From: Candidatus Omnitrophota bacterium
GTDB taxonomy: Bacteria; Omnitrophota; Gorgyraeia; Gygaellales; Profunditerraquicolaceae
Direction: 5' to 3'
Length of the DNA: 64,000 bases
NCBI GenBank assembly: GCA_041650835.1
Contig: JBAZKL010000001.1
Span: forward strand, 299,931-363,930
Shown here: piece after piece, positions 9,884 to 55,566 of the stretch
Position numbering within the stretch: position 1 is the stretch's first letter
How the letters are laid out: each line of letters opens with the position of its first letter
Made by a program: the position numbers and the translations under genes
The notes under the pieces: generated by a model
Told to the model about the DNA's origin: nothing
The model's input: only the letters and a program-made list of their open reading frames with translations
Database searches by the model: none

Positions 9884-11668
9884 TTAAAAAGATTTGGTAA
9901 CCGACCACCACACATGATGATTATCCCCGTCCACGCCGTTTTGATGAGTAAGCGGCCAGCCCGCGTCCAGGCGCACTGAAAAACCCTGGTCAGGCACGGT
10001 ATAGGTAAACCCGAACCCAACAGATGCGAGCGTAGTAACTTTCTTATCGTCAGGCTCTCCCGGGACAATAGATACCTTAGGGTTTTTAATGACCCCTTGC
10101 GCCCAATCCCAGAAGGTAAACAATTTTAAGGCATTATTCAATTTTGTCTTGGTAGAAAACGGCGCGTTCATGTCTTTAGGAATAAAATACGGAGGGAAAG
10201 AAAAACCCAGCGTTATCGCCCTGCCGCCATCCGCCGGCAACTGGGTCCGCGGATACCCCCTGTTATCGATCACGCCGCAATAACCTCCTATGCTGAACGC
10301 GTTCACTCCGGTGAGCGTAGCTGAAGAAACCTGCCAGCGGGCCTTACTGATAAAATCAATGCCGGCAAATAATGATTGCCGCCTTGCTACCGTCAAGAGA
10401 TTCTTGACATAATTGCCTTTGGCGCCCGCGACAGAGGCGTCATCTGATTTTATGGTCGCTCCATTAAGAAAATTAGGGATCGCCATTTGAAGGTCGTTCG
10501 TGATCACCCAGCGGCCGTAATTATCGGCCCGATTGAGCGACAGATCCCACTTAAGGACACGGAACTCATCCTTCCTGGTAGGATTATTATATTTCTCATA
10601 CGGCTTATACCACCAGATATCAAAATAGGTAAAACCATAGCTCGAAACAAACTCCAGGTCAGGCTTATTGATCAAATACTGATAAAACCAGAAATAGAAT
10701 TTTCTCGCCCGTTTCTCAAAATCAGTGGTCTCATTATCCTTATAATAATAATCCTCTGATTTATACGGCAGGAGATAAAACTGGAATTTCCATTTATTAT
10801 TAAGCGGTATACTATAATCCAGGTCGAATATCTTATGGGCATCGCCTTCAGCCCACTCGATCTTGGCAGTCAGGCTATCGTCATGGCCGGTGATATTATT
10901 ATGGATAAGAAAAGTTTTGTAGCGGTTATAGAGGATGGTCTCAGCGCCGTAGTTATCCGCCTGCAGGGTGGCATGCAGCGGAGATTTATCTTTTACCGTC
11001 AAGGTGACGTCTGCTGTGCCTGTGCTCTTATCCAGGTCGATCTGAATAGCCAGCTTTCTATCAGGATGCCTATTCATCCTGTAAACATCCAGATTAAGCG
11101 CGATAAAGTTGAACGGCTGTCCTTCCTTTAAGGTTATTTTTTTCATCAACAGATCCGTCGAGAAATTCTTATTACCTTGAATATTGATCTTGCCGGTCCT
11201 GCCTTCTACTGCCATAATTTCCAGGATACCCTCAGCGAGCTTATCGGGAATAATGTAGGCATAAGAGGTAATGTAGCCTTCGCGGCTGTAAGCGCGGTTG
11301 ATCAAATCCGCGCAGCGCTGCATTTGCCTGGCGGTCAAGTCCCTGTGTTCGTAATCTCTTTTGAGTTTATCGATAGCTTCCTGGGCCAGGAGGGTTGAAC
11401 CTTTGACGACAACTTCTTCTATACGCGTTGTCCCCTGGGGCAGCGTCGGCTTTGGTATAAGCGCCGCTACCTGCTGCTTAATTATTAAAACCGGGGCTTT
11501 CTCCCGTTTCTGCACAATTTCCTGCTCAATTAACTGGGCATGAGGGTCATCATCGCCGGCCCCCTCGTCAAAAGCGATCGCCCGGGAATCATTAAACAGG
11601 AATAAAAACGCGACAACAAAAACCACGGCAAATCCAATAAACTTCCTTTGCCATTTTAGGCTATTCAT
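9884..11668 (-). CDS. ShlB/FhaC/HecB-family (TpsB-type, POTRA + 16-strand barrel) outer-membrane transporter; no cognate TpsA adjacent
   Basis: Start moved to MNSLKWQ (ATG 11668..11666 preceded by AGGAGG). POTRA region IEEVVVKGSTLL...INRAYSREGYITSYAYIIPDKLAEGILEIMAVEGRTGKINIQGN is strongly ShlB-like. C-terminal barrel ends in F. Confidence 0.8.
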   Translation of the reverse strand: MNSLKWQRKFIGFAVVFVVAFLFLFNDSRAIAFDEGAGDDDPHAQLIEQEIVQKREKAPVLIIKQQVAALIPKPTLPQGTTRIEEVVVKGSTLLAQEAIDKLKRDYEHRDLTARQMQRCADLINRAYSREGYITSYAYIIPDKLAEGILEIMAVEGRTGKINIQGNKNFSTDLLMKKITLKEGQPFNFIALNLDVYRMNRHPDRKLAIQIDLDKSTGTADVTLTVKDKSPLHATLQADNYGAETILYNRYKTFLIHNNITGHDDSLTAKIEWAEGDAHKIFDLDYSIPLNNKWKFQFYLLPYKSEDYYYKDNETTDFEKRARKFYFWFYQYLINKPDLEFVSSYGFTYFDIWWYKPYEKYNNPTRKDEFRVLKWDLSLNRADNYGRWVITNDLQMAIPNFLNGATIKSDDASVAGAKGNYVKNLLTVARRQSLFAGIDFISKARWQVSSATLTGVNAFSIGGYCGVIDNRGYPRTQLPADGGRAITLGFSFPPYFIPKDMNAPFSTKTKLNNALKLFTFWDWAQGVIKNPKVSIVPGEPDDKKVTTLASVGFGFTYTVPDQGFSVRLDAGWPLTHQNGVDGDNHHVWWSVTKSF

Positions 11669-11699
11669 ATGCAGATCCTCCTTTTGCAGAATGCAAAAC

Positions 11700-11885
11700 A
11701 CGCCGCAGAAAGCGGCGTACTTGCCTATCCAATTAAGGCAAGTGCCGACGCAATACCGATCTGCGTCGGGTGTAAAACGCAAACGGTACACCCGCGCAAT
11801 ACCGTCGCAGAAAACGGCGTACCCAGCCACACCAGTAAGGCTGGGCGCGATGAGCGCGGGGTGTATTCGCTAAAAAAACGCCCGA
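11700..11885. repeat. GC-rich multi-hairpin repeat element, copy A (REP/BIME-like or structured RNA), upstream of the TpsB-FecR-OMP-CHASE2 cluster
   Basis: Units cgccgc-AGAAA-gcggcg-GTAC and cgtcgc-AGAAAAC-ggcg-GTACCCAGCC, plus hairpins cccagcc...ggctggg and cttgcc-tatccaattaa-ggcaag. Homologous to 55383-55566. Confidence 0.6.
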
Positions 11886-11950
11886 GTTTATCGACTATTA
11901 ATATAAAACATCTTAAAGGACACATCCCCCTTTGTCAAGGGAACAATTAG

Positions 11951-32227: not shown

Positions 32228-35200
32228 TTATTTACTTTTGAGTTTCTCGTCAAAGTCCTGAAAGAACTGCAGCAGGCTGTCATGGCCGACGAGCTTGAGC
32301 TGGCCGCCGGTAAGCTCGTAGGCATCCGCGCCGACCGAGAATTGGTCAAAAGCTCCCATATCCGACTCGGTAAGCGGATGATAGAAGAAAACTGAACCTA
32401 TGGGCGAGTTGAATTGGAACATCGCCAGGTCAGAAGCGTCTAAGCTCACAGGTTCATACGAGATAATACTGCCGACAGGAGCTTGCGAGACCGATTCAGG
32501 TTCCGGGACAGGCTCTGGTTCTGGTTCCGGCTCAGGTTCAGGCTGCTCTGAGGGAATATTATTAAAATAAACTATGCCGGGAGCGCTCAACACGTTAATA
32601 ACATCAGGAGTAGTCTCTCCCCGGATGATTCCGGTAAACGCCGCGCTGACTCCGTCAATTAGACCGTATGATACCAAATTTAAATTGCCAACACCTGTGA
32701 TCAACACATCCAACGGGATATCCAATGATCCGATCATGGATGTGGAATAAACTATCTGATAATCCGGATATTCGCCTATACGTGAATATGTGCCGTCATA
32801 GATATATACATCCCCTGAAGAAGTAATATGCGGGCCTTCAATAGCGCCTGCTATGATCGCGCCCCCTGCAGAGATATAAAGCCCTGAACTTAGCCCGCTG
32901 ATAGCCGCGTTCAGGAATATATCCCGGGCAGCATCGAGAACTTCCACATTGCCGTATACCTGTCCGCTTTGCGGATATTGCACAAAAATGCTTCCGGCAG
33001 TAGAGCGCACGCGTATCGCGTTCAAGCCGTCATCATCGCTTAAGAGGCTCGCGCTGAAATCAGGTTCCTCGGAATTTCCGCAAAGCAGGTTTTCACCTGC
33101 AAAAGTGAAGTTGCTTGCTGACTGGAATGAGAAATATTCAGAAGTCAAGTTAACGGCCTGTGCGCTGTAAAGATTCCCCGCGCCATTATCGTTATTATCC
33201 GCATGTAATTGTATCGTGCCTGCCTCGAGATCGCAGTTCAGATACAGATCCCCCGCAGAATGCAGGTAAATATAATCATCTCTGGGCTGCAGTTCGTTAA
33301 CGGTAAGCGTCTCTTCCAATGTTGAATAGATCGCGATAGATGACGGAGAAGATTCTCCATACGGCGCATAGAGTTCCAGCGTAGTCCCATCATCGTTAAG
33401 CGACAGATAGAACGAACCGTCAGCGCCTTCAGTCACGACAAAATCATTTGCCCCCTGAAAAGAATGGCTAAAAGCTACCAGCTCAAGATATTCGGCTTCA
33501 AAGATCAGCTCGCCTATAACATCATCGTCGTCATAATCAGCATACAAGCCGATCGTATTGCCCATAAGGTTATTATTCAGCGTCAGGTCTGCGCCCGCGC
33601 GCAGGATCATGTCGCCGAAGATCTCGGAAGTGCCTTCCGCGTTTTGGGCGATCGCCTCAGAACGCACCGGGAATTCAAGCCCTTCGACATCGATCTCGAT
33701 ATCGCCGATGGCATAAACGCTCAAAGCGCCGGCTTGCGCTGTTGCGGTTAAGGAAGGAGCAACCGCGCCAAGTCCTATCGCCTGCGCCATAGAATACACC
33801 TGCGACTCACTCAGTACGCTAAAATTAGCGCCGGTCGTGATCTCCAAAGGCCCGCTTGAAGCAACAGCTGTATCGACCCCGTAAGCATACGCTGTGGAAT
33901 TCAATCCGGATACTAAATCCAGGATAAAATTACCAAATGCAGAGACTATAATTTCACCAGAGGTGGCAATAGCTGAATTGCTGGCAGGCACATCGCCCCC
34001 AACCGTCGAGGTTCCGGCGCTGGCTTGCGTATAAACATGGCCGCTGTTAAAAATGATCGAAGCATTCGTGAACAACCCCATATCCCCTGAAACAGACGTA
34101 GCGATAGCGCCGCCCTGCGCGGTAGCTGAAGAATATACCGAAGACTCATCCGTTAATTGAATGCCGCTGCCTTCACCACGGTCGCCGCCCGCATCCAAAA
34201 CCACCACACCGCTTTGCGCATCCACATTACCGTCACCCCAGGAAAGCGCGTTAGCAGAGGAATAAACACTGCTCTGATCATCCCCCGAATTGGCCACTAA
34301 GATCCCCCACGCCAGGATCCCCGCGTCGCCTGAACGCGCCGCCGCATCTCCGGAAGACTCCGCTGTTGCCGAAGAATAGACGTGGCCGTCGATAAAAAGG
34401 CTTGCGTATTCGGCGAAAAGCGTCACATCGCCGGAATCAGCGTCAGCTGAAAGGTACCCATCGGCCTGGGCGCTGGAATAAAATGATGCTCCATCAAAAC
34501 TGATCCAACCGTCAAAAGAAGTAACATCGACATCGCCGGATTGAGCATCCCCCAGGCCATACGCATCAGCCACTGCAGACGTATACGCTGATGTTTGGTT
34601 AGAAAAAACGATTTCGTTCTCTGCCGTAATGATAATATTGCCTGATCCAGCAGTGCAATTACTGGCGTTTGAGGCATCGGCACGGCTGTTGGGAGAAACG
34701 TTGTTAAAACTAATAGCGTCTCCTGCGATCAGGCTTACGCTGCCGGAATATGCGCTTGCGCTATTGCCTTCTCCTGTATCCGCTTCAGCCAGGGAAGAAA
34801 TAAACCCTTCACTAAGGGTAATAGATCCTAATAAACTTTCAAGATTCACGTCATCTGACTGCGCCCACGCCGTGTCAGAGGACTCCGCGGTAGCCCAGGA
34901 AGTAAAAGAAACCGTTGCGTCATATTGCGGATCACCTGCTGCTTCAATACCATTATAGCCTAAGACACTGACATATCCCGCGTACGCGAGCGCTTCCTGC
35001 GCATCTCCTTCAAAGGCATATGCCTGGGCACGGCTGTTCAAGTCAGGGAAGCCGATCAAACGGAACAATCCAAGACAAGTAACATCAATGTTTCCCGTCC
35101 TGGCATAAGCATATTCATACGCGCTTGCCGTAGCATTAGACTGAACAGGAGTATCGATCAGATCCATATTCCCGCTGCTATATAAGGTAACATCACCGGC

Positions 35201-38200
35201 AGTCAATGACATGGAATTGGAGGTGGCTTCAGGGGCACCTGCCTGGGAATAAATATAACCTCCGTTACCGGTAAAAGCGCCATACGCAGTAACTGAAACA
35301 TCGCCTGACTCAGCTTCAACATTGTCAGAGCTATCTGCCTCGGCAGAAGAATATACACTTTCATTAAGAACAAAATTACCGTTGATCGTCAGATCAACTA
35401 AGCCGGAATAAGCATCGGCATCTGTTTCACTGGATGCCTCGGCTAAGGAATAAATATCATTGTTAACGGTCAAAGAGCCGCTTTCGATAGTAACAGGCCC
35501 GGAAACAGCATTAGCATAACTTTCACCATAGGCTGCTGCCTGAGAATAAATATTATTGTTAAAATCAAAAATGCCGGATGAATAGATATTGATCCCGCCG
35601 GAAGCAGCATAGGCATTCAAAGCGGTAGCTTCAACTTGGCTATAAACATACCCATCGATCAAATATATATTATTCCCGGCTAAATTAACATTGCCGGCAG
35701 TCAATCGAGCGGTAACAGCGTTAGAGCTTGAGGAAGACGCGCCGGTATAAGCGTATCCGCCGTCCAGAGTAAGATCTGTTCCGGCATACATTGTTACATC
35801 ACCGGAAGTCGCCTGCACTAAACCCGGGGTATAGTCCCCGTAACCGCCGGCGTAAGCTTCGGCGGTAGAATAAGCGCTCAAATAGACGTTCACCGCCCCA
35901 TACCAGCTGTGCACATCGATGCTATCGGAAGTAGCGTATGCCGAGCCGCCGTTAGAATTCACAACCGCGGAAACATTAGACCAGACAAGCGATGTAACCG
36001 GGATAGTAATGGTCCCATAATAAGAGACAAGATTGACCTTGCCGGAGACCGATTCAGCGAGATCCACCGCAGAGGTCAATGCATCGCTATACACATGGCT
36101 GGCGAGCGTAATATCATACCAGGCATCCAAGGTCACGTCGCCTGCGCGGGCATAAGCCTCCTCCGCGCTCCCTTGAGCAACAGCAGATCCGTAAACCTGA
36201 GAATTATCAGCCATCACGACCCGGTTGCCCGCGTCGATCAATACCGCCTGATAACCCCATTCATAGTTATTGTAATCGTAATAGGACTGCCCGGCTATAG
36301 CCGTCATGCTTGAACCGGCCTGCTCTTCAAGACTAGTCTGCGCATCGGCATCAGAACGAACCTCGGTCTGGGTAAGCAGGATATCTCCATAGGCCGCAGC
36401 AAGAATGACTGCGGAGGAATACGCTTCTGCGCTGTAACCAGCAGTCGCTTGTGCCCAAGAATAGACATCCGCGCCGTAATTATAGTACGGATCCCTGCCG
36501 TCGATCGTCAAAGTATTGCCCGCGTTCAAACTAACCAGGCCGCTTTGCGCGTAAGCGCTCGTGCCCAAATAAGAGTTCGCGTTGGCGGAAGAATAGATCA
36601 GCTCAAGAAATCCGGTATCAGTAAGGTTATTGCCCGCTTCAAGCAGAACATCACCGCTGTAAGCGGTTGAAGTTAGGCTGCCGCTGGCAGAGGCTTGCGA
36701 ATAGACATGGCCCCAGTCCATGGTAATATTGTTTCCGGCAGTCAGGCTGACAACGCCTGAAGTTGCCGAACAATTCTCAGAACCGGAACCGTTGGCGTAA
36801 GAATAAACGCCGGCGCCGCGGCCAAAAATAATATCGCCGCCGGCGGATAAAATAACATCACCGGAAACCGCGTTAGCTACCGGGTTATAATAATCTGAAC
36901 CTACATTCGAGGATATGCTGACCTGGTCAGCTAATTCAATGTTATCATCCGCGTACAAAGAGATCGATCCGCCGGGGGCATCCGCATAAATATCGCCCAG
37001 GATATTAAGGCTGGACATTGCCTGCAAATAAATATCTCCGCCATGATTGTAAATCCCGTCTTCATAAGAATCGGCGTAACCTACCTGCAGGTCCCCCCTA
37101 TTAATGATATTGATATCGCCGCTACCGCTATTTGACGCAGTAACGGTCTGTACGCCGTTCATAGCCACATCAATACCGTTGACGGCAGAAAGTTCTACGG
37201 TTCCCGCCGAAATCTCTCCTCTACCCGCGGGCATCTGTGTCTGGGCAAAGATCTCAAGACCGGAAAGAGCCTGGTTATAGGCCCTGACATCATCCATATA
37301 TCCTTCTACCGTGAGAGGCAAGTAACCCCATGAGCCGATGCAGAAAGAACTTGAGGTATCCGCAGAACCTTCTGCGACAGTAAACTCGCTAAAATACCTG
37401 GTTTCATCGCCGTCAAAGACATAAAGTCCGCCCTCATTACCGTCACGGACCATAGATAACTGATACCAGCTTTCGTTATTGATAGCTACGGTACTGTCAA
37501 AGGTCTGCTCATTCAACCAGTAACGTAAATAACCATTATGATTTTCCAGGGCATAGCCTAAGCCCCTTCCGGGAGTAGCCCCGGCCAAACCAACATACTG
37601 CTCATTCTGTGTCCCCTGATACCATACTATTAAGGTAAAGGGAGCACTGCCGAAATTGAAGTTGCGGCCTGTATTGATATAATCGTCAACTCCGTCAAAA
37701 TACAAACAAGAAGAACCGTCAACCCCTGTTCCCCAGCCGGGGTTGCCGTTAACATAAGAATACATGCCGGTAACTTGATCATAAACATAGTTACCGTAAC
37801 CCTCGTCAAAATTCCAGTAAGCCTGCAGGCCGTAATCAAGAACTTCCATGTTCCTGCGGGCGATCGCGCCGGTTTCAGAGGTCAGATAAATTCCTGCCCA
37901 ATCCGGAGCAGTTATATTTGCTATAGTATTAATATATAGATTACCCTGGGCATTAAGTTCGATATCCCCTTCTGCCCATATCCCGTAGCGGACTCGCAGG
38001 TCGCCTTCAGCGGAAATATTGATCGACGCTTCTGCCGCGGTATTTTCCGCGGTCAAAACAACCAGATCCTTGTCATTACGAAGGTATATCCCGCCATTTT
38101 CTTCATTAAAAGCCACCAGGTTATTCACAGAGATCTCTAACTCATAATCGGGATCTCCGATCCCACCGATAGCCTCAAGGTAAAGCTCATCAGCCTCAAT

Positions 38201-40069
38201 AGCAGTGCCTTCTGCGCCGTTTAAGATCGAACCCGAAGCCATCAAAACTACCAGGCCGGGAGAACGGATATCTGAAACGTAAAGATCAGGCGCCCCTTGT
38301 TCGATAAAGATATCGCCATATGTAGATTCAGGATTTATGACTGCGGAAAGAGATCCTACGTTGGTCAGGACAGGATGGTCAAGTGAGCCGATACCAGAAC
38401 CCGCTCTTAAGTTCAAGGTACCGCCCCAATCATCACCGGAAATGGTATAATCACCGGTATTGATTATTGAACCAATGCCGGGATCATATGTTGAATCCCA
38501 TTCATACCAGAAATATTCGTTGTCTTCAGTATAAGCTTGTTGATCAGCAAAGAGATTAAGGGTGGCATTGTAACCAAGAGTGATATTACCGATAATAGTA
38601 ATATCGCGCCAAGCGTCAATAGTAGCGTCTGCTTCAATGAAAGTTGAACCTGCGGGGTCCCCGATCGTAGCGTATTCGGGGTCAAGGATGGCTTTTCCAA
38701 GGGTAAATCCCGGAGGAGCCCTGCCATTGAGAATACCAAAGAAACCCAATTGTTGGAATGCGTCAATATATACTGTTCCGCCGTTACCGCTCAAGGCTCC
38801 GGCTGAGAAATCTATTTTCGCGGTTTTGTTCACAAAAACGCTGCCCTGCCTGGCATCAATGGAGATCCTTCCGCCATTTCCCACAAGGCCCATTGCCCTT
38901 GCTTCTGTTGAGCTATTTTCATCCAAGACGGTGTTGTTTTCGCTGATAATGCTGATCTCACCGGCAGTACCCTCTTCATCAGCATTGGCAGAGATCAACC
39001 CCTGCTGCAAAATACTTTCAGCTTCCAAAACGATCTTACCGCCAGCAGGGGTTATTGCGGGCGCGTAAGCGATGATCTTACCCTCTTTAGTATTGGTTAT
39101 GCTGTCTTCCTTTACCTTTATATATATCTCCTGCGCCTTTATTTCTCCGGAATTGGTAAAAGCTGCATCAGAGGTAATAGAAACTTTGTCCGCTTCCAGG
39201 GTGCCGCTATTAGCTACCTGAGCACCTTCAGCTAACAATTCGATTATCCCATCATGTTTGACTAAAGAAGTGACTTTTACCAGTCCGGTATTGTTGATCG
39301 CATAGTCAAAAACACGATTTAATATTTTAGCAGTCAGGATAACTTTACCACCTTCTGCCAGGATTGACCCGCTATTCTTTACAGCACAAGAGATCTTCTG
39401 GCCATCCGGGCCAAAGATCTCTTCTTGCACCCCTTCATCGATCACCACTGAAATCGCGTTCTTATCTTCCAGTGCCAGGGTCATCTTTTCTCCAGAAGCG
39501 AGGACCACCGTGCCCAGATCAGCCTGGATCATCATCCGGTTATCAACTGCCTGCGAAAGCAGGCAAACGTAACCACCGGACTGCGCGTTAAGGCTACCCT
39601 GGTTAATGATAAAGCTGCCTTTACCTTCTTGAGAAAACACATAATTCCCATTAAGAAAGTCTTCATTGGCAATATTAAGCGTTGAAGCGACAAGGCCCGC
39701 GACATCAACATGAGAACCGGGGCCAAACAATACACCATTAGGGTTAACTAAAAAGATCTGCCCGTTCGCGGACAATGTCCCCATGATACTGGAAGGGTCT
39801 ATGCCAACCACGCGGTTCAACGCCACAGAGCTTGCAGAAGGCTGCAGGAAACGCACGGCTTCCTGCGCGGCTATATTAAAACTATTATAATTGACAATGA
39901 GTTTATCGGAAGGGGTATTGATATTCAGAGTATTGGATGCAGAACGGTCAAAGCTTGCCTCTCCGCTGACTACACTTTCACCTTCAGGAAGGGCAAAGAG
40001 CATAACCGGCAGAAATAAAACCATACAAATAGCGCTCATTACCCAATATTTAATCGCGGTAATCTTCAT
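32228..40069 (-). CDS. Giant TpsA-type exoprotein (filamentous-haemagglutinin-like): N-terminal TPS secretion domain, beta-helical repeats, LamG/ConA-like insert, PE-repeat linker, distinct C-terminal domain
   Basis: 2613 aa. Signal peptide. TPS domain NINTPSDKLIVNYNSFNIAAQEAVRFLQP...ALNRVVGIDPSSIMGTLSANGQIFLVNPNGVLFG. Dozens of about 40-aa YS(Q/S)A..SGDV.L.AG repeats. LamG-like block about aa 760-930. (EP)6VPEPE linker. Confidence 0.85.
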   Translation of the reverse strand: MKITAIKYWVMSAICMVLFLPVMLFALPEGESVVSGEASFDRSASNTLNINTPSDKLIVNYNSFNIAAQEAVRFLQPSASSVALNRVVGIDPSSIMGTLSANGQIFLVNPNGVLFGPGSHVDVAGLVASTLNIANEDFLNGNYVFSQEGKGSFIINQGSLNAQSGGYVCLLSQAVDNRMMIQADLGTVVLASGEKMTLALEDKNAISVVIDEGVQEEIFGPDGQKISCAVKNSGSILAEGGKVILTAKILNRVFDYAINNTGLVKVTSLVKHDGIIELLAEGAQVANSGTLEADKVSITSDAAFTNSGEIKAQEIYIKVKEDSITNTKEGKIIAYAPAITPAGGKIVLEAESILQQGLISANADEEGTAGEISIISENNTVLDENSSTEARAMGLVGNGGRISIDARQGSVFVNKTAKIDFSAGALSGNGGTVYIDAFQQLGFFGILNGRAPPGFTLGKAILDPEYATIGDPAGSTFIEADATIDAWRDITIIGNITLGYNATLNLFADQQAYTEDNEYFWYEWDSTYDPGIGSIINTGDYTISGDDWGGTLNLRAGSGIGSLDHPVLTNVGSLSAVINPESTYGDIFIEQGAPDLYVSDIRSPGLVVLMASGSILNGAEGTAIEADELYLEAIGGIGDPDYELEISVNNLVAFNEENGGIYLRNDKDLVVLTAENTAAEASINISAEGDLRVRYGIWAEGDIELNAQGNLYINTIANITAPDWAGIYLTSETGAIARRNMEVLDYGLQAYWNFDEGYGNYVYDQVTGMYSYVNGNPGWGTGVDGSSCLYFDGVDDYINTGRNFNFGSAPFTLIVWYQGTQNEQYVGLAGATPGRGLGYALENHNGYLRYWLNEQTFDSTVAINNESWYQLSMVRDGNEGGLYVFDGDETRYFSEFTVAEGSADTSSSFCIGSWGYLPLTVEGYMDDVRAYNQALSGLEIFAQTQMPAGRGEISAGTVELSAVNGIDVAMNGVQTVTASNSGSGDINIINRGDLQVGYADSYEDGIYNHGGDIYLQAMSSLNILGDIYADAPGGSISLYADDNIELADQVSISSNVGSDYYNPVANAVSGDVILSAGGDIIFGRGAGVYSYANGSGSENCSATSGVVSLTAGNNITMDWGHVYSQASASGSLTSTAYSGDVLLEAGNNLTDTGFLELIYSSANANSYLGTSAYAQSGLVSLNAGNTLTIDGRDPYYNYGADVYSWAQATAGYSAEAYSSAVILAAAYGDILLTQTEVRSDADAQTSLEEQAGSSMTAIAGQSYYDYNNYEWGYQAVLIDAGNRVVMADNSQVYGSAVAQGSAEEAYARAGDVTLDAWYDITLASHVYSDALTSAVDLAESVSGKVNLVSYYGTITIPVTSLVWSNVSAVVNSNGGSAYATSDSIDVHSWYGAVNVYLSAYSTAEAYAGGYGDYTPGLVQATSGDVTMYAGTDLTLDGGYAYTGASSSSSNAVTARLTAGNVNLAGNNIYLIDGYVYSQVEATALNAYAASGGINIYSSGIFDFNNNIYSQAAAYGESYANAVSGPVTIESGSLTVNNDIYSLAEASSETDADAYSGLVDLTINGNFVLNESVYSSAEADSSDNVEAESGDVSVTAYGAFTGNGGYIYSQAGAPEATSNSMSLTAGDVTLYSSGNMDLIDTPVQSNATASAYEYAYARTGNIDVTCLGLFRLIGFPDLNSRAQAYAFEGDAQEALAYAGYVSVLGYNGIEAAGDPQYDATVSFTSWATAESSDTAWAQSDDVNLESLLGSITLSEGFISSLAEADTGEGNSASAYSGSVSLIAGDAISFNNVSPNSRADASNASNCTAGSGNIIITAENEIVFSNQTSAYTSAVADAYGLGDAQSGDVDVTSFDGWISFDGASFYSSAQADGYLSADADSGDVTLFAEYASLFIDGHVYSSATAESSGDAAARSGDAGILAWGILVANSGDDQSSVYSSANALSWGDGNVDAQSGVVVLDAGGDRGEGSGIQLTDESSVYSSATAQGGAIATSVSGDMGLFTNASIIFNSGHVYTQASAGTSTVGGDVPASNSAIATSGEIIVSAFGNFILDLVSGLNSTAYAYGVDTAVASSGPLEITTGANFSVLSESQVYSMAQAIGLGAVAPSLTATAQAGALSVYAIGDIEIDVEGLEFPVRSEAIAQNAEGTSEIFGDMILRAGADLTLNNNLMGNTIGLYADYDDDDVIGELIFEAEYLELVAFSHSFQGANDFVVTEGADGSFYLSLNDDGTTLELYAPYGESSPSSIAIYSTLEETLTVNELQPRDDYIYLHSAGDLYLNCDLEAGTIQLHADNNDNGAGNLYSAQAVNLTSEYFSFQSASNFTFAGENLLCGNSEEPDFSASLLSDDDGLNAIRVRSTAGSIFVQYPQSGQVYGNVEVLDAARDIFLNAAISGLSSGLYISAGGAIIAGAIEGPHITSSGDVYIYDGTYSRIGEYPDYQIVYSTSMIGSLDIPLDVLITGVGNLNLVSYGLIDGVSAAFTGIIRGETTPDVINVLSAPGIVYFNNIPSEQPEPEPEPEPEPVPEPESVSQAPVGSIISYEPVSLDASDLAMFQFNSPIGSVFFYHPLTESDMGAFDQFSVGADAYELTGGQLKLVGHDSLLQFFQDFDEKLKSK
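32495..32545. repeat. Simple-sequence repeat (ggttcYgg)n encoding the (Pro-Glu)n linker of TpsA
   Basis: caggttccgggacaggctctggttctggttccggctcaggttcaggctg. Reverse complement encodes EPEPEPEPEPEPVPEPE. Confidence 0.7.
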
Positions 40070-40184
40070 AAATTTTTCTGCGGCTTATTGCTGGAATGAA
40101 ACCATCGACAAACACAACACTTACAGGATTTAGACTCTAATAAAGGCAGTATACATTATTTTGAAAGCGTTTTCAAGTTTTTTT

Positions 40185-41894
40185 TTAAAATTCTTTGGAA
40201 ACCTGGACCCAGGGATGAAAGCGGTCGCCGTCAGAAGGTGTCTTTTTAACAGACCAGGCAAAATCAGCCCTTATGGAGAAGTTTTCCGGAAGATTAAAAC
40301 GGATCCCCCACCCAAGGCTGCGCAAAGTGCTGTTTTTTCTTTCCCCTGGCTGAGGCTGGCGCAGATTAACATAACCCCAGTCATAAAATGCCACTAACTT
40401 TAAAGCATCGTAGAATTTTGCCTTTGAGAAAGGCACCAAAATATCCTTGGGTAAAAAGTATGGCGGGATCAGCCATTCCCAAGATGACGATATCCCCCGG
40501 TCTCCCACATATTCTCCGGAAGGATACCCCCTTACATTAGATATACCGCCCAACTGAAACTGTTGGGATGCCGTCAGGGTGTAGGGAGATGTTTGAGCCT
40601 GGCTCTTCCACAAAAGCATCGAGGATAACGGCATATTCTGAAGACGGATAAGATTTAAGCTATACTTGATAAATTTTCCGCCGGAGCCGACCCTTGAGGC
40701 GCGGCTGTCTTTTTCTTCCAATCCACCCATAAAATCAGCTAAACCAAGGCCTATTTCCGGAGAAATAATGGTCCTTCCTCCCCTTGCCCAAGAATCAGAA
40801 GCATCAAGGTCAGCTCCCAGTTTAACCACACGCAGACGGTCACGGCTCTGTTCATCGCCGAGTTGGAAATTAAAAGAATCCAGATAATCAAACCCGGCGT
40901 TCAAGGTAACGGCGTAATCATCCTTTTTGATCAAATCATGGATCGCGAAAATGCTGTAATTACGGCTCTTGCCTCTGGCCTCCAGGCTTTTGAATTCCCT
41001 GCCCAATTCCAGCGCTGATTTTGAGATGGAAAATCCCAGTTTAGTCCTGGAGGAAACAGGCAAAAGATAGCGCAAAGCGATCAACGTGTAATCCTGGCCG
41101 TCAGAGGTCTGATACTGCAGGGAAACAATATCATCGAATCCGAAAATATTGTTATGGCTGAGCACTCCCGTATAACGGTTCTTATCCACATAGCGGGAAG
41201 CGTAATTGTCATAATCTAACCGCAGATGTAACGGCAGGTTATCGGTAACTTCAAGGACAATATCAGTGGCACCCGCTTCCTTGCCGGGCGCGAGCACAGC
41301 CTTGACATTCCTGTCAGGATGCTCATTAAGTTTGGAAAGGTTTCTTCTGAGTTCTTTATAATCAAAATGCTCTCCTTTTTGAAGACGGATCGCCTTCCTG
41401 AGTACGGAAGTGCGGAAAAAACGGTTCCCCTTTATTTCCACGTCACCGATCACTCCTTCAACTGCCATGATCTCCATGACCTCATTTTGTATCTTTTGCG
41501 GAGGCAGATAGGCGCGGGAAGTCACATACCCTCTTTTACGATAGGCGTCAGTAATAAGGTCGACCACTTTTTGCATCTCCTCGAGCCCTATTTCTTTATT
41601 CTCAAAAGGCGAGATTATGCCCTGGATCTCCTGTTCAGGAATAAGCGTGACCCCTGTTACGTTGATCTTCTTGATCAAAACCTTCTCTCCGGCAGCAAGA
41701 GGGGCCCTGATCTCCGGCGGCGGCTCTTCTATCACCGGCTCTTCTTTCTTTTCTTCGATCCTCTCCCGCAGGAGTTTTTCTTCTTCAAGCTGGCGCTGTT
41801 CCTGCTGGAATTTCTCCACTTCCTGAGCCAGGGTTAAAGCAGGAAAAAGAAAAACAATACATATACCGATAAGAATTCTTTTTAATCTATCCAT
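40185..41894 (-). CDS. TpsB (ShlB/FhaC/HecB-family) outer-membrane transporter, cognate partner of the downstream TpsA
   Basis: Signal peptide, coiled-coil/Pro-rich spacer, POTRA (ITDAYRKRGYVTSRAYLPPQKIQNEVMEIMAVEGVIGDVEIKGNRFF) and C-terminal barrel ending ...VQVSKEF. 115 nt upstream of TpsA. Confidence 0.85.
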   Translation of the reverse strand: MDRLKRILIGICIVFLFPALTLAQEVEKFQQEQRQLEEEKLLRERIEEKKEEPVIEEPPPEIRAPLAAGEKVLIKKINVTGVTLIPEQEIQGIISPFENKEIGLEEMQKVVDLITDAYRKRGYVTSRAYLPPQKIQNEVMEIMAVEGVIGDVEIKGNRFFRTSVLRKAIRLQKGEHFDYKELRRNLSKLNEHPDRNVKAVLAPGKEAGATDIVLEVTDNLPLHLRLDYDNYASRYVDKNRYTGVLSHNNIFGFDDIVSLQYQTSDGQDYTLIALRYLLPVSSRTKLGFSISKSALELGREFKSLEARGKSRNYSIFAIHDLIKKDDYAVTLNAGFDYLDSFNFQLGDEQSRDRLRVVKLGADLDASDSWARGGRTIISPEIGLGLADFMGGLEEKDSRASRVGSGGKFIKYSLNLIRLQNMPLSSMLLWKSQAQTSPYTLTASQQFQLGGISNVRGYPSGEYVGDRGISSSWEWLIPPYFLPKDILVPFSKAKFYDALKLVAFYDWGYVNLRQPQPGERKNSTLRSLGWGIRFNLPENFSIRADFAWSVKKTPSDGDRFHPWVQVSKEF

Positions 41895-42655: not shown

Positions 42656-44566
42656 TTAATTAAAACGAAAAACAAGCATGGTAATATCATCGGACTGAGG
42701 TTCTTCCTTTACAAAATCGCGTATTTCATTACGCAGGGCAAAGACTATCTCGGCAATACTCTTACCCTTTAACCCTGAAAGCGCCTTTTGCAGCCTTTTT
42801 TCGGAGAAAAACTCTTTTTGAGGGTTCATAGCCTCAGTTACCCCGTCAGTATAGAGGAACAGGCAATCCCCGTGATCGAGCTTGATCTTACCGGCTTTAA
42901 ACTTAAAGTTCTGCATAGGCCCCAGAACAAAACCGGTTTCAACCTTTAGAAATTCGAAATCCCCGCCTCCTGAACAGATCAAAGGCGGATTATGCCCGGC
43001 ATTGGAAAACTCAACTTCCCCTGTTTGCGTATCCAGCACCCCGCAAAAGACAGTAGTAAACATACTGGTATTATTATCGAGCGCCAGGATATTATTTACC
43101 TTAGAGAGTATTTCGGAGGCGGAGATACCCTGTAATGCCTCATTCTTCAAGAGGGTCTTGGTAATCATCATGAACAATGCCGCCGGCACTCCTTTGCCGG
43201 AAACATCCCCCATCGCGAAGAACAATTTCCTGTCATCGATCAGGCAAAAATCATAAAAATCACCGCCCACTTCCTTTGCCGCCTCCATCATGGCATAAAT
43301 ATCGAATTCTTTCTTGTCCGGGAACGGAGGAAAGATCCGGGGCAATATGCCGGTCTGGATTTCGCGGGCGATCTTCAACTCGCTTTCAATGCGTTCTTTT
43401 ACCGCGGTAGTCTCGGTCAACTTCTTGATGTAATCTTTGAGTGACAGCTTCATAGTGGCGAATGCTTCAGTCAGCTTTCCTACCTCATCCCCTGAGAGAA
43501 CCTTGGGTAATGGCACGTCAAGATCGCCTTTGCCGATGGCCTCCGCGGCAAGCGAGATCTTGCGCAGGGGTTTGGTAATGGAACGCGACAGGATGATAAT
43601 TACTATCACCAGCAATACTATCCCGGCCCCGCCCAGGAGGCCGGACTCCAGGCTGTTCCTGCGGACATCTTCCAACAACTCATCTTCAGGGAACATGACC
43701 GCCAGGGTCCAACCGGTAGAAAGGACAGGCGCATAATACATCCAGCATTTTTTACTTCTGGCAATAGAAATAACCGGCGCAAACCCGGATTCTCCACGCA
43801 CCATTTTTCTGGCGATCCGGCGTAATCCCGCGTCGTTGCGGGATTCTGCTACGCTGAAAATTGTTTCATTCATGATCAATTGTTTCACGGAATGCGTAAT
43901 GATCGTCCCGTTCCTGGAGATAAGGTAAGCATCGCCGGTTTTCAACACCTTAACAGAAGAAACAATATCGGTGAGTTTTTCCAGCGAGATATCAGCGCAG
44001 ACGATCCCTTTGAGTTTTTTCCCTCCCGGGGTCTTTTCGTAAAAAGGGACGGAATATGTCGCCATCAGGATATCGTCATAATACGGCTCTGTCCATACCG
44101 GGCGCTTGAGTTCACGGGGGATCTGATACCAATCCAGATAAAAATAGCGGTAAGATTCATCCCCCATATAAACCAAGGTCAGGCCTTCTTTTTCTTTGGC
44201 ATAATAGGGAGCGAAATAGAGCGATTGAGCGTCAAAGGCATACGGCTCAAACGCTATTCCGGCTCCATATATCTCTTCATTATTGTTTACTACCATTTTC
44301 AGAAGGCCGACAACCTCTTCTTTGCTCAAATTACCTTCTTCAAGAGAAAAAGCCATATTTTCCGGGATTTTCTTGACCGAAGCTAAAATGGTCTCAATTT
44401 TATTGACGGCGCGCAGCGTAACATTCTCAGCGTTCTCTCTAATATTACCCATGATAATATTCTTGGAGAACCGGTAATTTAAACCGATGATCAGAAAAAA
44501 GATAAGCGCGCTGCTCCCCGAGAAAAAAAGGATGAACTTAAAGGCAAGGCTTTTATTCCTCATCAT
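42656..44566 (-). CDS. Membrane sensor phosphatase: TM - Cache-like periplasmic domain - TM - HAMP - SpoIIE/PP2C
   Basis: Two TM segments flanking about 270-aa periplasmic region. HAMP (ITKPLRKISLAAEAIGKGDLDV). PP2C core GGDFYDFCLIDDRKLFFAMGDVSGKGVPAALFM...YTDGVTEA. Confidence 0.8.
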   Translation of the reverse strand: MMRNKSLAFKFILFFSGSSALIFFLIIGLNYRFSKNIIMGNIRENAENVTLRAVNKIETILASVKKIPENMAFSLEEGNLSKEEVVGLLKMVVNNNEEIYGAGIAFEPYAFDAQSLYFAPYYAKEKEGLTLVYMGDESYRYFYLDWYQIPRELKRPVWTEPYYDDILMATYSVPFYEKTPGGKKLKGIVCADISLEKLTDIVSSVKVLKTGDAYLISRNGTIITHSVKQLIMNETIFSVAESRNDAGLRRIARKMVRGESGFAPVISIARSKKCWMYYAPVLSTGWTLAVMFPEDELLEDVRRNSLESGLLGGAGIVLLVIVIIILSRSITKPLRKISLAAEAIGKGDLDVPLPKVLSGDEVGKLTEAFATMKLSLKDYIKKLTETTAVKERIESELKIAREIQTGILPRIFPPFPDKKEFDIYAMMEAAKEVGGDFYDFCLIDDRKLFFAMGDVSGKGVPAALFMMITKTLLKNEALQGISASEILSKVNNILALDNNTSMFTTVFCGVLDTQTGEVEFSNAGHNPPLICSGGGDFEFLKVETGFVLGPMQNFKFKAGKIKLDHGDCLFLYTDGVTEAMNPQKEFFSEKRLQKALSGLKGKSIAEIVFALRNEIRDFVKEEPQSDDITMLVFRFN

Positions 44567-48594: not shown

Positions 48595-51500
48595 CTAAAG
48601 TTTAGGATACGTCCCCAAAAATATCCCGCTTAATTCCTGCGGCTCTTGAATCGACTCAAGCACCACCAGGATATCGCCTAAGACAGGATCGGTTTCGCAA
48701 CAACTGTCTTCTTCTTGCCTTAAGATGCGCGCTATACATAAAATGATCTTATCTTTATAGCGAGCTGACGCATTTTGGACATATGCGGCGTACGTAAACT
48801 CCTGTAACCTTTGCGGACAAACATCTATCCCCGAACTGCTCACCCGTTCTATTTCCTGCCATTCCCCGGTGAGATCGACCTTTAACAACCTGCCCCGGCT
48901 CAAACCGGACATATTCGCGGTAAAATTTGTTATTGCCTGAGTAACCATAGGAAGAAAACGAAAATCAATCCCCCCCATATCATCCTTACGGAGAATTGAT
49001 GGTGAGCCTGCCGAACCATCGATCCCGCCCATGCCGCTTTCTACCGGAGAGCCGGATTTTTGGCTCACTTCTATCTCTGCTAAAATAACACCATCTCCTT
49101 CACCGAAAAAGAGCCGCGCGACCCTGTTCTTTTCGACGCCTAACTTGATGTAATATTCATCCATGGTTTTCCTGGCTGCAGGGAGCTTCCGGATACCGTC
49201 AATAATATCCATGACCATATCTCCGTTAAGCATGCAGAAAGGCATTTTCTTAGACTGAGCGTTCTTTGCCACCAGCAGCCCGAAAATTAACGAGAAGGTT
49301 TCATTGGCCGCGACTATCTTAAGAGCTGCTTCTTTTTCAGCATCGCTTAATTCAGTTGAATTCTTTATCGCATTGGTCATATGAGGATTATAGATCTCAA
49401 TATAAATATCGTGAAGTTTACGCAGGCTCTTAAAAGCGGCGGTGCCGGATAGAAGACGCTCTATCTCTACGTAAGTATTTAATATTTCCTCATCATGTAT
49501 GCCTGACTGCAGAACATGGATCGTCTCGTGCGCTAAATGTCCCGCGGAAGGGATAGCTCCGCCATAATAAATCACTCTCCCTGCCGGAAACGCTATCCCC
49601 GCTCCTTCAAGATACGGGTAGCCTTTAAGATTAAGATTATTTTCCCATCTTCGCTTTGAAAGCACTGTTACTTTCCAGCCGGCTTTTTGGATAAGCCCGG
49701 ATAAATATCGTATATCTATGTCAGTATCAGTTTTGGCGTCATTGCGAGGTACAAGACCGGCAGCAACTTCCCCAAACCCGGGTGGATCGACAAAGAATAA
49801 CAATGATAAAGCCGCTCCTCCTATAATAAAACCTCTCCTGCTCAGTAATGTTTTATTATTTGGCGGCCCGTCATTGCTTATCATAGATGAGGCGGCGGAC
49901 AGGTCAAACCGCAGGATTTGCTCATAGTTTTCTAATCTGTGTATTCCTTTCAACCTGAGCAAACCCCTCCCTCTTATTTCTTTAGGAGGGATTTTTATCG
50001 GCCACATATCAAGTTCTACTGCGTCAAAATCATCAATCGCTCCGATACAAACCCCAAACTCGTCATAGATCTCCCGCTCGACTTGCTGCATCCGGTCACG
50101 TTGCTCTTGTGTCTTATAAATTTCAACGCACATGTCTATATCAGAAGGATATTTGCGTTGAGTGCGCCCATATATTTTAAGCGCATCGCTATATGAAAGC
50201 TTTTTGGGATAAATGCCTAAACGGGGATTACGGCCCGTCATACCGCCGGCCAATCCTGTTATTTTCAACCCGATATTCTCAGCCTCCTCTATAAACTTAT
50301 TTATTGCGCGTTGATAGACGAACAATACTTTCTGGGCCGCCAGATCAGTATTGGCCACTCCAAAATCATCGAAGTACCGGCTGGACTCTATACCCTTATC
50401 CCGCATTCCCTTTATCTCCTGAACTATTTGTTCTTCAATGGATCCCATTCTCTCGCTTCTTGACTTTATTAATTCGTCCCATACATACCCGGCGTTGCGA
50501 TACAATTTCAACATTATTGCCCGCGTCCAATCACCTTTCAACGGTGAAGAAGCAGCTTCCCGGGAAGGCGCTGTGTTTATCTGCGGCCCTTCATTTGGGC
50601 CGGCCCCGGTAACAGGCGAACCCGCCTGTCTCGCGCCGGCGCCTGCCTCTTTCGCGAGAAGTTGCGCTTGCCTGTAGCGGTCCCCGATATCTACATAGGG
50701 AGTCTGACTCATGATAGCGCTTATAATTTCACTCTCCAGGATATCCGGCACATCTAAATCTTCCGCAAGCTTACCGTCAAAATTCTTTTTCCATACCGCG
50801 GACATACTTCTGCCTATACCCCTCTCCAATCTTTCCCGGAACGCGGTTTCCACATCAACATCTATTTCAACGGATTCGTCTACAAAAGACAGCGAGGTGT
50901 CGAAGGTCAGATCTATAAGAAAGTCCCTCGACGGCAGATGAAGCCCGGGCTTTAAATTACCGTAATCTTTGATCGAAGCGCACCGTAAAAACACCCCGTT
51001 ACCGTTGACATAGATCGTTCTTTGTTCATTTTCCGAACTTCCCTTATACGTTTTTGTATTCACCGTAACATCCTCAGGCAGCCACCAATCGATACCTCCT
51101 TCAAAAGGCGCGGATAAACTCACTCCTTTTGTCAAAACCACGACATCTATGTCCTTATGTTCTTTCAGGTCCGCATCTTTCTTTAAACGGTTATGCAAAT
51201 CCTTGGAAACACTTCCGACTACTATTCCAACCGCATTATGCTTTTTTAAGATCCTGTCCGCTACTAACAATCCTTCTTCTCCTACTGCCGCAAGAGGCGG
51301 GACCGGCTCTGTTAACTCCGGATCGAACTTTAAGAGTTGTTTCAACTGTATTTTTTGTTTTGAGGAAAGCTCCTGCCGCAGCTGCAGCGTTAATTCCATT
51401 CCGATAGGCGAAGCGGCAGCTCCTCGATAACTTAAACCTAATACAAATCTTACAGCGCTTTTATCATCCGGATCCGGCAATTGCCGCGTATATTCAACTG

Positions 51501-55275: not shown

Positions 55276-55382
55276 TTAAGCGAATTGTGGTTACCGATTA
55301 TTTTGGATAGAATATTATACTAAGTGTAACGTATATATAGGTAAGGTTTCAAGGGTATTTCGGGGCATTTTGAAAGCGTTTT

Positions 55383-55566
55383 CCGCGGCAGAAAGCCGCG
55401 TACCGGCGCAATACCGCCGCAGCAAGCGGCGTACCCAGCCGCTCCAATTAGGCTGGGTGCTATAAGCGCCGGGTGTAACGCCAGCACCCCAGCTTAAGAG
55501 GAATGCTGGGTGCGTCCTTGCTGGCCAGAAAGCCTGCCTGCCGGCAGGCAGGCCGCGTACCGGCAA
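55383..55566. repeat. GC-rich multi-hairpin repeat element, copy B, upstream of the giant gene
   Basis: cgcggc-AGAAA-gccgcg-GTAC, gccgc-AGCAA-gcggc-GTACCCAGCC, acccagcc-gctccaattag-ggctgggt, terminal direct repeat gccgcgtaccggc at both ends. Stem sequences are swapped relative to copy A (compensatory). Confidence 0.6.

Follow-up and report, generated by a model that had tools for sequence, protein, structure and literature searches.

Two intergenic hairpin loci of a Candidatus Omnitrophota contig as probable members of a lineage-specific family of modular palindromic repeats

In Proteobacteria and Firmicutes, palindromic repeats interspersed in the genome have been studied extensively. The bacterial interspersed mosaic elements (BIMEs) of E. 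coli and the BOX elements of Streptococcus pneumoniae are mosaics of a few modules in variable number and order. The Correia/NEMIS elements of Neisseria and the ERIC/IRU elements are intergenic sequences of about 100–150 nucleotides (nt), which are bounded by inverted repeats, are co-transcribed with neighboring genes, and can locally alter mRNA processing or expression. The ends of IS200/IS605 insertion sequences form imperfect hairpins that are recognized as single-stranded DNA (ssDNA), with cleavage and insertion beside a specific tetranucleotide and a strand bias linked to replication. Repetitive extragenic palindromic (REP) elements are imperfect intergenic palindromes with a conserved 5′ tetranucleotide, GT(A/G)G, directly adjacent to them (PMC3686654). 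In this study, we analyzed a stretch of 64,000 nt (the window) from a Candidatus Omnitrophota bacterium (assembly GCA_041650835.1, contig JBAZKL010000001.1, positions 299,931 to 363,930). The window contains two GC-rich multi-hairpin loci, copy A (approximately 11682–11865) and copy B (55384–55564), both located in spacers between genes. No Omnitrophota repeat family was described in the literature searched or in Rfam.

The two loci probably represent a family of GC-rich palindromic repeats that are interspersed and modular, resemble REP, BIME, and BOX, and are specific to one lineage, being found between the genes of one genus-level clade of Candidatus Omnitrophota. The family has multiple copies per genome and in relatives, covarying stems, conserved loops, turnover at syntenic sites, restriction to a clade, and no fixed partner gene. 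An interspersed repeat was preferred over a dedicated RNA gene or leader because the neighboring genes are unrelated, the orientation is mixed, the positions of the two window copies are not equivalent, orthologous sites differ, broken and nested forms occur, and the family is clade-restricted. A first-pass annotation of this DNA had named RNA and REP/BIME-like DNA palindromes as the two options, and the evidence fits the latter better.

A covariance model built from ten copies gave 13 matches with strong scores of 80–124 bits, corresponding to 12 distinct loci (L040 17783–17880 being copy B read again), plus weaker partial matches. The strong copies were located in the window, on the same contig outside the window (L038 and L040 denote the source contig to the left and right of the window, respectively), in the sister metagenome-assembled genome (MAG) JBAZTA01 (L003, L006, and L031), on contig L004 (CAZPNW010000202.1), and on the JGI contigs L012/16, L017 (two copies), L020, and L024; L030, referred to below, is also a JGI contig. 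In a scan of 185,579 species genomes, the core was detected at two places in the Candidatus Omnitrophota MAG JBAZTA01 (L003 and L006) and at one in L004, and the other five matches in this collection, among them those in Pseudomonas, Dyella, and a Verrucomicrobiota MAG, were rejected as chance matches of 70–90 nt in unrelated sequence. For the JGI metagenomes, the pattern AATACCG...CAGNAA...CCANTNA matched nothing because the relatives carry AATTCCG or CAGAAG, and a second pattern yielded L012 (identical to L016), L017 (two copies), L020, and L024. Most metagenome matches and the single viral match with a loop other than CCAATTA were regarded as chance, and a search for the core in plasmids, phages, and IMG/VR gave no match. 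Rfam yielded no match for the whole window at the gathering score and, for the loci at E up to 10, noise only, such as miRNA and snoRNA models. On the source contig, a further copy was found 2.5 kb past the right end of the window, between alr and lptG, and partial modules lie between tsaE and tsaD and 47 nt beyond the tmRNA gene. In total, 82.8 kb of this contig contained three large loci and three to four partial modules, and JBAZTA01 contained two loci in 21 kb.

The canonical unit, derived from copies outside the window, is approximately 98 nt long and consists of a P0 hairpin and a three-way junction of P1, P2, and P3. P0 has a freely variable stem of 4–6 bp and a loop of the (C)AGAAA(G) or RGAAA type. 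The arms of P1 are CACC(C/G)GCGC on the 5′ side and GCGC(C/G)GGGTG, with one extra G, on the 3′ side. The 5′ arm is followed by the junction AAT(A/T)CCG, then by P2 (CGCCGC-AGAAA-GCGGCG) and TA, and then by P3 (CCCAGCC-ACACCAATTA-GGCTGGG, with a CCAATTA loop), which is linked to the 3′ arm of P1 by the junction TGCRATNA. The module set also includes a hairpin followed by YAC, a mini-P1 hairpin, module X, and a GCCTGCC palindrome; the stems of the family measure 5–10 bp and include a T.G pair or an extra G. It is common for copies to be truncated, permuted, duplicated in tandem, or nested, with modules lying inside one another's loops, and P0, P2+TAC, P3, mini-P1, X, and the GCCTGCC palindrome occur in varying combinations in window copies A and B, L017, L024, L031, L038, and L040.

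Both window loci folded far better than shuffled sequences on either strand (z −3.9 to −6.8), and the leader of the TpsB gene downstream of copy A had a predicted fold of approximately −85 kcal/mol on the gene strand. RNAalifold independently predicted the four helices P0–P3. Across the 12 distinct strong copies, 96.6% of the cells formed standard pairs, compared with 89% in shuffles and 29–45% in slid-partner controls, seven pairs showed changes on both sides, and the covariation score was reached by none of 500 shuffles; these figures are supportive rather than a formal test, the copies being related and the alignment having been fitted to the model. P0 was the main source of the covariation signal, as many as four types of pair occurring at a single position (stem pairs UA/CG and CG/GC/UA/AU among copies). 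One position of P1 switched among G-C, C-G, and U.G, and P3 showed a change from A-U to C-G in L031 and a wholesale change of the stem in the permuted unit of copy A. The loops were conserved across copies while the stems covaried, and these two features support the view, already taken in the first-pass annotation, that the hairpins are under selection as folded structures and maintained by compensatory change. The compensatory swap that it had noted in the small hairpins, CGCCGC/GCGGCG versus CGCGGC/GCCGCG, was confirmed, and the outer P1 stem is also swapped within the window (CCCGCGC/GCGCGGG in A and CCGGCGC/GCGCCGG in B). A strand call from wobble pairs was attempted and rejected; T.G was slightly more frequent than A.C in the + orientation, but the pairs were too few and not independent.

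The G+C content of the copy A and copy B loci is 56–66%, compared with 47% for the window overall, and the genes flanking both are all on the minus strand. The spacer of copy A extends from the stop of an open reading frame (ORF) of 298 amino acids (aa) (11951) to the ATG of a ShlB/TpsB-type gene (11671), and that of copy B from the stop of a MASE1-PAS-HisKA_2 kinase gene (55586) to the ATG of a 2226-aa ORF (55275). All motifs of the conserved multi-hairpin element previously pointed out in the two copies were found at their places, and the longest ungapped block common to them was 76 nt with 84% identity (11790–11865 versus 55402–55477). The bounds of copy A, formerly given as 11700–11885, were revised: it starts at approximately 11682 with the P0 hairpin, and its structured part extends to 11865. 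The CCCAGCC/GGCTGGG hairpin is present as described, but in copy A the CCAATTA loop assigned to it is on another stem (TTGCCT/AGGCAA, 11721–11741), and the loop of CCCAGCC/GGCTGGG is ACACCAGTAA. The hairpin unit GCAGAAARCSGCGTAC had three exact occurrences and one with a single mismatch, all on the + strand and confined to the two loci; with up to three mismatches, 10 matches were obtained versus 1.5 expected. The scores of covariance model R1 were 117.5 bits for copy B (55382–55479, E 3e-27), 87.3 bits for copy A2, the second unit of A (E 1e-19), and 47.5 bits for the first half of copy A.

Each window locus is a composite of several units rather than a single element (Table 1). Copy A consists of a permuted unit, with the order P0, P2-TAC, P3 with a different stem but the CCAATTA loop, and mini P1, followed by a core without P0, whose three-way junction appears in the minimum-free-energy fold. 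The region of its P0 hairpin is largely kept in L031 and L030. The swapped P3 (11721–11743) is changed on both sides in five of the seven P3 pairs and is identical in JBAZTA01 (L031). In the mini P1, which has no internal P2 or P3, the two junction sequences themselves close the outer stem, and the same form comes after the element in L024. Copy B consists of a full unit, the extra module X, and a truncated unit in which P0 is broken by a perfect palindrome and CCGCGTACCGGC corresponds to the start of the P1 5′ arm; module X recurs ahead of the repeat copy at L040 6760–6820, and a similarly interrupted P0 recurs in L017 8202–8319. A P1-like hairpin at 23591–23617 is weakly indicated as a third, minimal relative in the window. 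Its 3′ arm carries the same extra G as the P1 of the repeat, and it lies between the stop of a DJ-1/PfpI gene and a small downstream ORF, the counterpart of which in L031/L042 is a Cupin_2 gene.

Table 1. Modules of the two repeat loci and related features in the 64,000-nt window
Feature	Position	Strand	Basis or remark
Copy A unit 1, P0-type hairpin TTTTGC-AGAAT-GCAAAA	11682–11698	+	Sequence; aligned to P0 of model R1 (row 11680–11754)
Copy A unit 1, P2-type hairpin CGCCGC-AGAAA-GCGGCG, then TAC	11701–11720	+	Sequence; repeat family D5
Copy A unit 1, P3-type hairpin, fully swapped stem TTGCCT/AGGCAA, conserved loop ATCCAATTA	11721–11743	+	Sequence
Copy A unit 1, mini P1 hairpin GCCGACGC-AATACCGATCT-GCGTCGG, then GTGTA	11744–11774	+	Sequence
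Copy A unit 2, three-way-junction core without P0	11789–11865	+	D2 block, minimum-free-energy fold, 87.3 bits
Copy A unit 2, P1 5′ arm CACCCGCGC	11789–11797	+	Then AATACCG
Copy A unit 2, P2 with a T.G pair	11803–11819	+	Then TA
Copy A unit 2, P3 CCCAGCC-ACACCAGTAA-GGCTGGG	11822–11845	+	Then junction CGCGATGA
Copy A unit 2, P1 3′ arm GCGCGGGGTG	11854–11863	+	
Promoter-like site TTGACA-17-TAAGAT, upstream of copy A on the gene strand	11910–11938	-	Context, outside the repeat; kept in two relatives
Minimal relative (weak), P1-like hairpin CACCGGCCC-ATCCGATA-GGGCCGGGTG	23591–23617	+	Model 19.4 bits, E 0.017
Copy B, P0 hairpin CGCGGC-AGAAA-GCCGCG	55384–55400	+	Sequence, model alignment
Copy B, three-way-junction core	55401–55477	+	D2 block, 117.5 bits, RNAalifold
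Copy B core, P1 5′ arm ACCGGCGC, then AATACCG	within 55401–55477	+	
Copy B core, P2 CGCCGC-AGCAA-GCGGCG, then TA	55415–55431	+	
Copy B core, P3 CCCAGCC-GCTCCAATTA-GGCTGGG, then junction TGCTATAA	55434–55457	+	
Copy B core, P1 3′ arm GCGCCGGGTG	55466–55475	+	
Copy B, extra module X, stem GCCAGCA/TGCTGGC around hairpin CCCCAGC-TTAAGAGGAAT-GCTGGG	55480–55525	+	Sequence
Copy B, truncated next unit: P0-type loop CAGAAAGCC broken by perfect palindrome TGCCTGCCGGCAGGCAGG, then CCGCGTACCGGC, then stop	55526–55564	+	

The family resembles the REP and REPIN-RAYT systems of Enterobacteria, Pseudomonas, and Stenotrophomonas in its short GC-rich imperfect palindromes that are exclusively intergenic, several copies per genome, clade-specific sequence classes, higher-order clusters, rapid gain and loss among relatives, a conserved stem irregularity (here, the extra G in P1), and a conserved tetranucleotide beside the hairpin. 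However, the reverse strand here reads GTAC-GCCGC-TTTCT-GCGGC, and no GTAG or GTGG adjoins any conserved stem. In a REPIN, two inverted REPs form one long hairpin, whereas the four hairpin+TAC units in the window, like others elsewhere on the contig, are direct and on the + strand, and the inverted parts are limited to the P1 arms of 9–10 nt. The family was not classed as REP because these two features, the tetranucleotide and the inverted doublet, were absent when tested. A REP is a single stem-loop of 20–35 nt, compared with the 98-nt four-helix fold with conserved loops found here. REPs number tens to hundreds per genome; the counts for the present family are those given above for 82.8 kb of one contig and 21 kb of JBAZTA01. 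REP/REPIN systems also have a cognate single-copy RAYT gene, encoding a Y1/HUH transposase, with repeats on its flanks, and no transposase domain was found here in the scanned window ORFs or the annotated flanks.

BIME and BOX elements share with the family a mosaic of modules, which was tested and found here, as well as a strong predicted secondary structure and an intergenic location, often near gene ends or starts. Their sequences are unrelated to those of the family, whose modules, unlike theirs, nest in loops and form a three-way junction. The Correia/NEMIS and ERIC/IRU elements are similar in size, intergenic location, and inverted-repeat bounds, and probably also in co-transcription with local effects on mRNA, but they resemble miniature inverted-repeat transposable elements (MITEs) with target-site duplications (TA for Correia) and do not reshuffle hairpin modules. 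Recognition of the IS200/IS605 type would explain the units of a hairpin with GTAC and the single-strand orientation over 82.8 kb, although neither tnpA nor tnpB was found nearby. With its conserved loops and nesting, the three-way-junction unit elaborates a known repeat type in an unusual way, and the family is new.

The TpsB leaders of the window, L031 (JBAZTA01), and L030 have conserved flanks and a different module mosaic in the middle, with another mini hairpin nested inside P1 in L031; the leader of the more distant syntenic relative L042 is AT-rich and contained no element. L031 also has a nested copy between a 74-aa ORF and a TPP-enzyme gene, where the window has 15 nt. The tsaE-tsaD spacer is 58 nt in the related genome L036 versus 178 nt with a module in the source genome, and alr and lptG overlap in L036 versus a spacer of approximately 690 nt with a module in the source genome. 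At the site of copy B, the 2226-aa protein had no full-length orthologue among its matches, the shared region amounting to approximately 15% only, and 93 kb from three other Omnitrophota genomes, on contigs reached via matches to this protein, contained no copy. All taxonomically placed copies appear to belong to one genus-level group, because the GlyRS encoded beside the L004 copy shares 94–95% identity with its counterparts on the source contig and in JBAZTA01 and at most 85% with those of other Omnitrophota. The L004 contig, titled 'uncultured Planctomycetales bacterium', is probably mis-binned or mislabeled. In these otherwise compact genomes, the family accounts for some GC-rich spacers of unusual length, and it could be used to mark strains or clades and to flag mis-binned contigs.

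The first-pass annotation had tied both copies to envelope/secretion operons and had placed them in an equivalent 5′ position, and neither point was upheld. Every copy of the family lies between ORFs, and the neighbors are not related to one another: TpsB, a kinase and a giant protein, glyS (GlyRS)/panB, recA/GGDEF, thioredoxin, an ABC-F ATPase, DUF2157, tsaE/tsaD, alr/lptG, and tmRNA. The true two-partner secretion (TPS) pair of the window, TpsA (32228–40069, with the TPS domain) and TpsB (40185–41894), has no repeat copy. Copy A is downstream of a promoter-like site (Table 1) and therefore within the TpsB leader; copy B starts approximately 20 nt after the kinase stop codon, upstream of the sole promoter-like site before the 2226-aa gene. 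The orientation relative to neighboring genes is mixed, being antisense at most source-clade sites and sense in L017, L020, L024, L006, and the lptG copy. In the 82.8-kb source stretch, all six to seven loci are on the same DNA strand, one of them being sense to its nearest gene. GC skew was rejected as a proxy for replication direction, since it merely tracks the coding strand.

Promoters and terminators around the copies showed no consistent pattern. A consensus scan of the + strand found no promoter-like or terminator-like site flanking either window copy. No hairpin with a U-tract was called as a terminator at copy B, and the lone terminator call inside copy A is an incidental 7-pair stem (11834–11815, minus) that is not a conserved helix. 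Whichever way the repeat is read, no T-rich stretch follows P1 or P0, and the repeat core is not an intrinsic terminator in either orientation.

Among the alternatives to an interspersed repeat, a multi-copy structured non-coding RNA in the + orientation, of the small RNA (sRNA) or protein-sponge-like type, appears unlikely. The RGAAA and CCAAUUA loops and the junctions of such an RNA would bind protein or RNA, and the repeats would be gene copies and pseudogene fragments. It would account for loops and junctions that are more conserved than the stems, for the freely covarying P0 stems, and for the GAAA-like loops, and it agrees with an element that is 85–95% conserved between genomes whose adjacent hypothetical protein is 69% identical. 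The non-Watson-Crick cells are mostly T.G in the + orientation, one T.G being kept in 12 of the 13 aligned copies (RNAalifold extension of P3), but these T.G counts are small and come from copies that are not independent. The promoter and terminator of its own that would be expected of an independent sRNA gene were not found by the consensus scan, either upstream or downstream of the two window copies. Furthermore, the truncation, permutation, or nesting of many copies would destroy a defined RNA, the syntenic sites of near relatives lack the element, and no Rfam family matched. Ribozymes of the hammerhead or twister type were also rejected; the required junction conservation is missing (CGAUGA is present in two copies only), and Rfam gave no match.

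A cis-acting leader or attenuator RNA, read on the gene strand as the reverse complement of the model and controlling the translation or stability of the downstream gene, is quite unlikely. A conserved promoter-like site and the TpsB Shine-Dalgarno sequence lie on either side of copy A, and on the gene (minus) strand its P0 hairpin directly abuts this Shine-Dalgarno sequence (GGAGGA) and the ATG (11671–11669) of the TpsB/ShlB gene. A hairpin cluster is also present in the TpsB leader of three related genomes, but its module content differs among them, and a fourth syntenic genome has no element. Although source-clade copies are often 10–110 nt before a start codon, the promoter-like site of the 2226-aa gene comes after copy B, other copies stand before or after unrelated genes in either orientation, the true TpsA/TpsB operon lacks the element, and the core has no terminator consisting of a hairpin and a U-tract. 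The fixed position and orientation expected of a riboswitch or cis-acting leader were thus not observed, given the unrelated neighbors, mixed orientation, and differing or absent orthologous architecture, and the two window loci should not be annotated as a riboswitch or as a regulator of secretion operons.

A MITE derived from a conventional DDE insertion sequence, with the P1 arms as terminal inverted repeats, is a very improbable origin. The core is bounded by inverted arms of 9–10 bp (CACCSGCGC/GCGCSGGGTG), the element is present several times per genome, and at one syntenic site it is found in one genome but missing from another; however, no target-site duplication is visible at this site, P0 and other modules lie outside the inverted arms yet travel along, internal modular reshuffling is atypical of MITEs, and no transposase or parent insertion sequence with matching ends was found at any locus examined. 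A coincidental likeness of GC-rich spacers, the outcome that the first-pass annotation had attached to a failure to find more copies and supported covarying pairs, can practically be dismissed, since further copies were found in the same genome and in relatives, in independent ENA, NCBI, JGI, and Logan assemblies, with model E-values of 1e-18 to 1e-28.

For the interspersed repeat family that we favor, the recognized and selected form would be a folded single strand, either ssDNA at the time of replication or, in a co-transcribed copy, RNA. Copies may multiply or be reshuffled in trans by a hairpin-recognizing enzyme, for which a HUH/Y1 transposase of the RAYT or IS200/IS605 type would be the best analogy, or they may spread by recombination and slippage between copies. 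The analogy to REP/RAYT and IS200/IS605 was drawn because the hairpins are consistently followed by (G)TAC with different hairpins starting after it, hairpins are nested in older loops, and placement is on one strand; by analogy such a mechanism is conceivable for the family. The single-strand placement of the six to seven loci weakly matches the expectation of strand-biased ssDNA mobilization (approximately p 0.03 for 6 loci). Co-transcribed copies, such as that in the TpsB leader, would have a local effect only, the stable stem-loop cluster altering mRNA stability or ribosome access.

Several points weigh against an interspersed repeat of this kind. No transposase or RAYT-like gene was found in the scanned window ORFs or annotated flanks, the REP hallmark GT(A/G)G is replaced beside the hairpins by GTAC on the reverse strand, and the units of a locus run in the same direction instead of forming inverted doublets. 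At the single clean pair of a filled and an empty site (L031 versus the window), no target-site duplication was readable. The genome-wide copy number is an extrapolation. Since source-clade copies are often located 10–110 nt from a start codon, some sites may have a cis-regulatory role, and the conserved loops, freely covarying stems, GAAA-type loops, and slight T.G excess would also suit a functional RNA. In a more specific proposal, which we consider doubtful, the 98-nt fold would be either the specific ligand of a mobilizing or regulatory protein, similar to REP/RAYT, with the junction and GAAA-type hairpins by GTAC and insertion into old loops, or a new multi-copy structured RNA. In the latter case, the conserved RGAAA and CCAATTA loops would be the functional surface. 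The nested architecture and conserved loops of the family offer a starting point in the search for an enzyme that spreads such repeats.

As for the genes in and around the window, the TPS pair at 32228–41894 (minus) is complete, with a 569-aa TpsB (POTRA_2/ShlB/Omp85) and then a 2613-aa TpsA that carries a TPS domain at its N-terminus. The second ShlB-type gene (9884–11671) is followed by genes for FecR, a beta-barrel porin-like protein, and a CHASE2-adenylate/guanylate cyclase, and this order is kept in four relatives. The 2226-aa ORF (48595–55275, minus) has no Pfam domain; approximately 15% of it is 55–70% identical to hundreds of very large proteins (1200–3800 aa), which are from Omnitrophota wherever the source is named. 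This region is fused elsewhere to diverse enzymatic domains, such as methyltransferase, metallophosphoesterase, PEP-utilizing, GNAT, and HD domains and looks like a phylum-wide shared module of giant proteins. The tmRNA gene to the left of the window (L038 14592–15001, +) lies beside smpB, scored 171 bits with Rfam, and was missed by ARAGORN; its 3′ flank is a long inverted repeat rich in G+C, whose loop holds a nested module of the hairpin family.

Other repeats were also observed. Besides the hairpin element, short AT-rich repeats, TAAAGTCTAAAGG and GGTTTAAGGTTTAATTTT among them, fill the alr-lptG spacer (L040 6120–6650). At L003 1–125 and L004 1000–1190 (minus), the hairpin element is immediately followed by a second repeat unrelated to it, with perfect inverted arms of 13 bp (AAGACCGGGACTT ... 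AAGTCCCGGTCTT), a spacer of approximately 25–30 nt, and related CAAGACCYGGTCTT palindromes; it is absent from the window and may be another small mobile repeat family. The direct repeats at 24694–24944 and 43137–43396 (approximately 190 and 56 nt, 77% identity) were rejected as a repeat element and attributed to gene paralogy, as they lie inside paralogous SpoIIE-type phosphatase genes (24207–25754 and 42656–44566). In the AT-rich spacer at 22328–22423, between a DJ-1/ThiJ-like gene and a 73-aa ORF, 14-nt tandem repeats (AGCGTATAGCGTAT / AGGGTATAGCGAAT) form the arms of a 35-nt inverted repeat with 80% complementarity. Of two near-identical contigs of the more distant relative (L043 15005–16140 versus L042 15031), one has an intact CHASE2-cyclase gene; the other is approximately 155 nt longer at this place and has two small reverse-strand ORFs (62 and 79 aa), the CHASE2-cyclase being called at 435 aa only.

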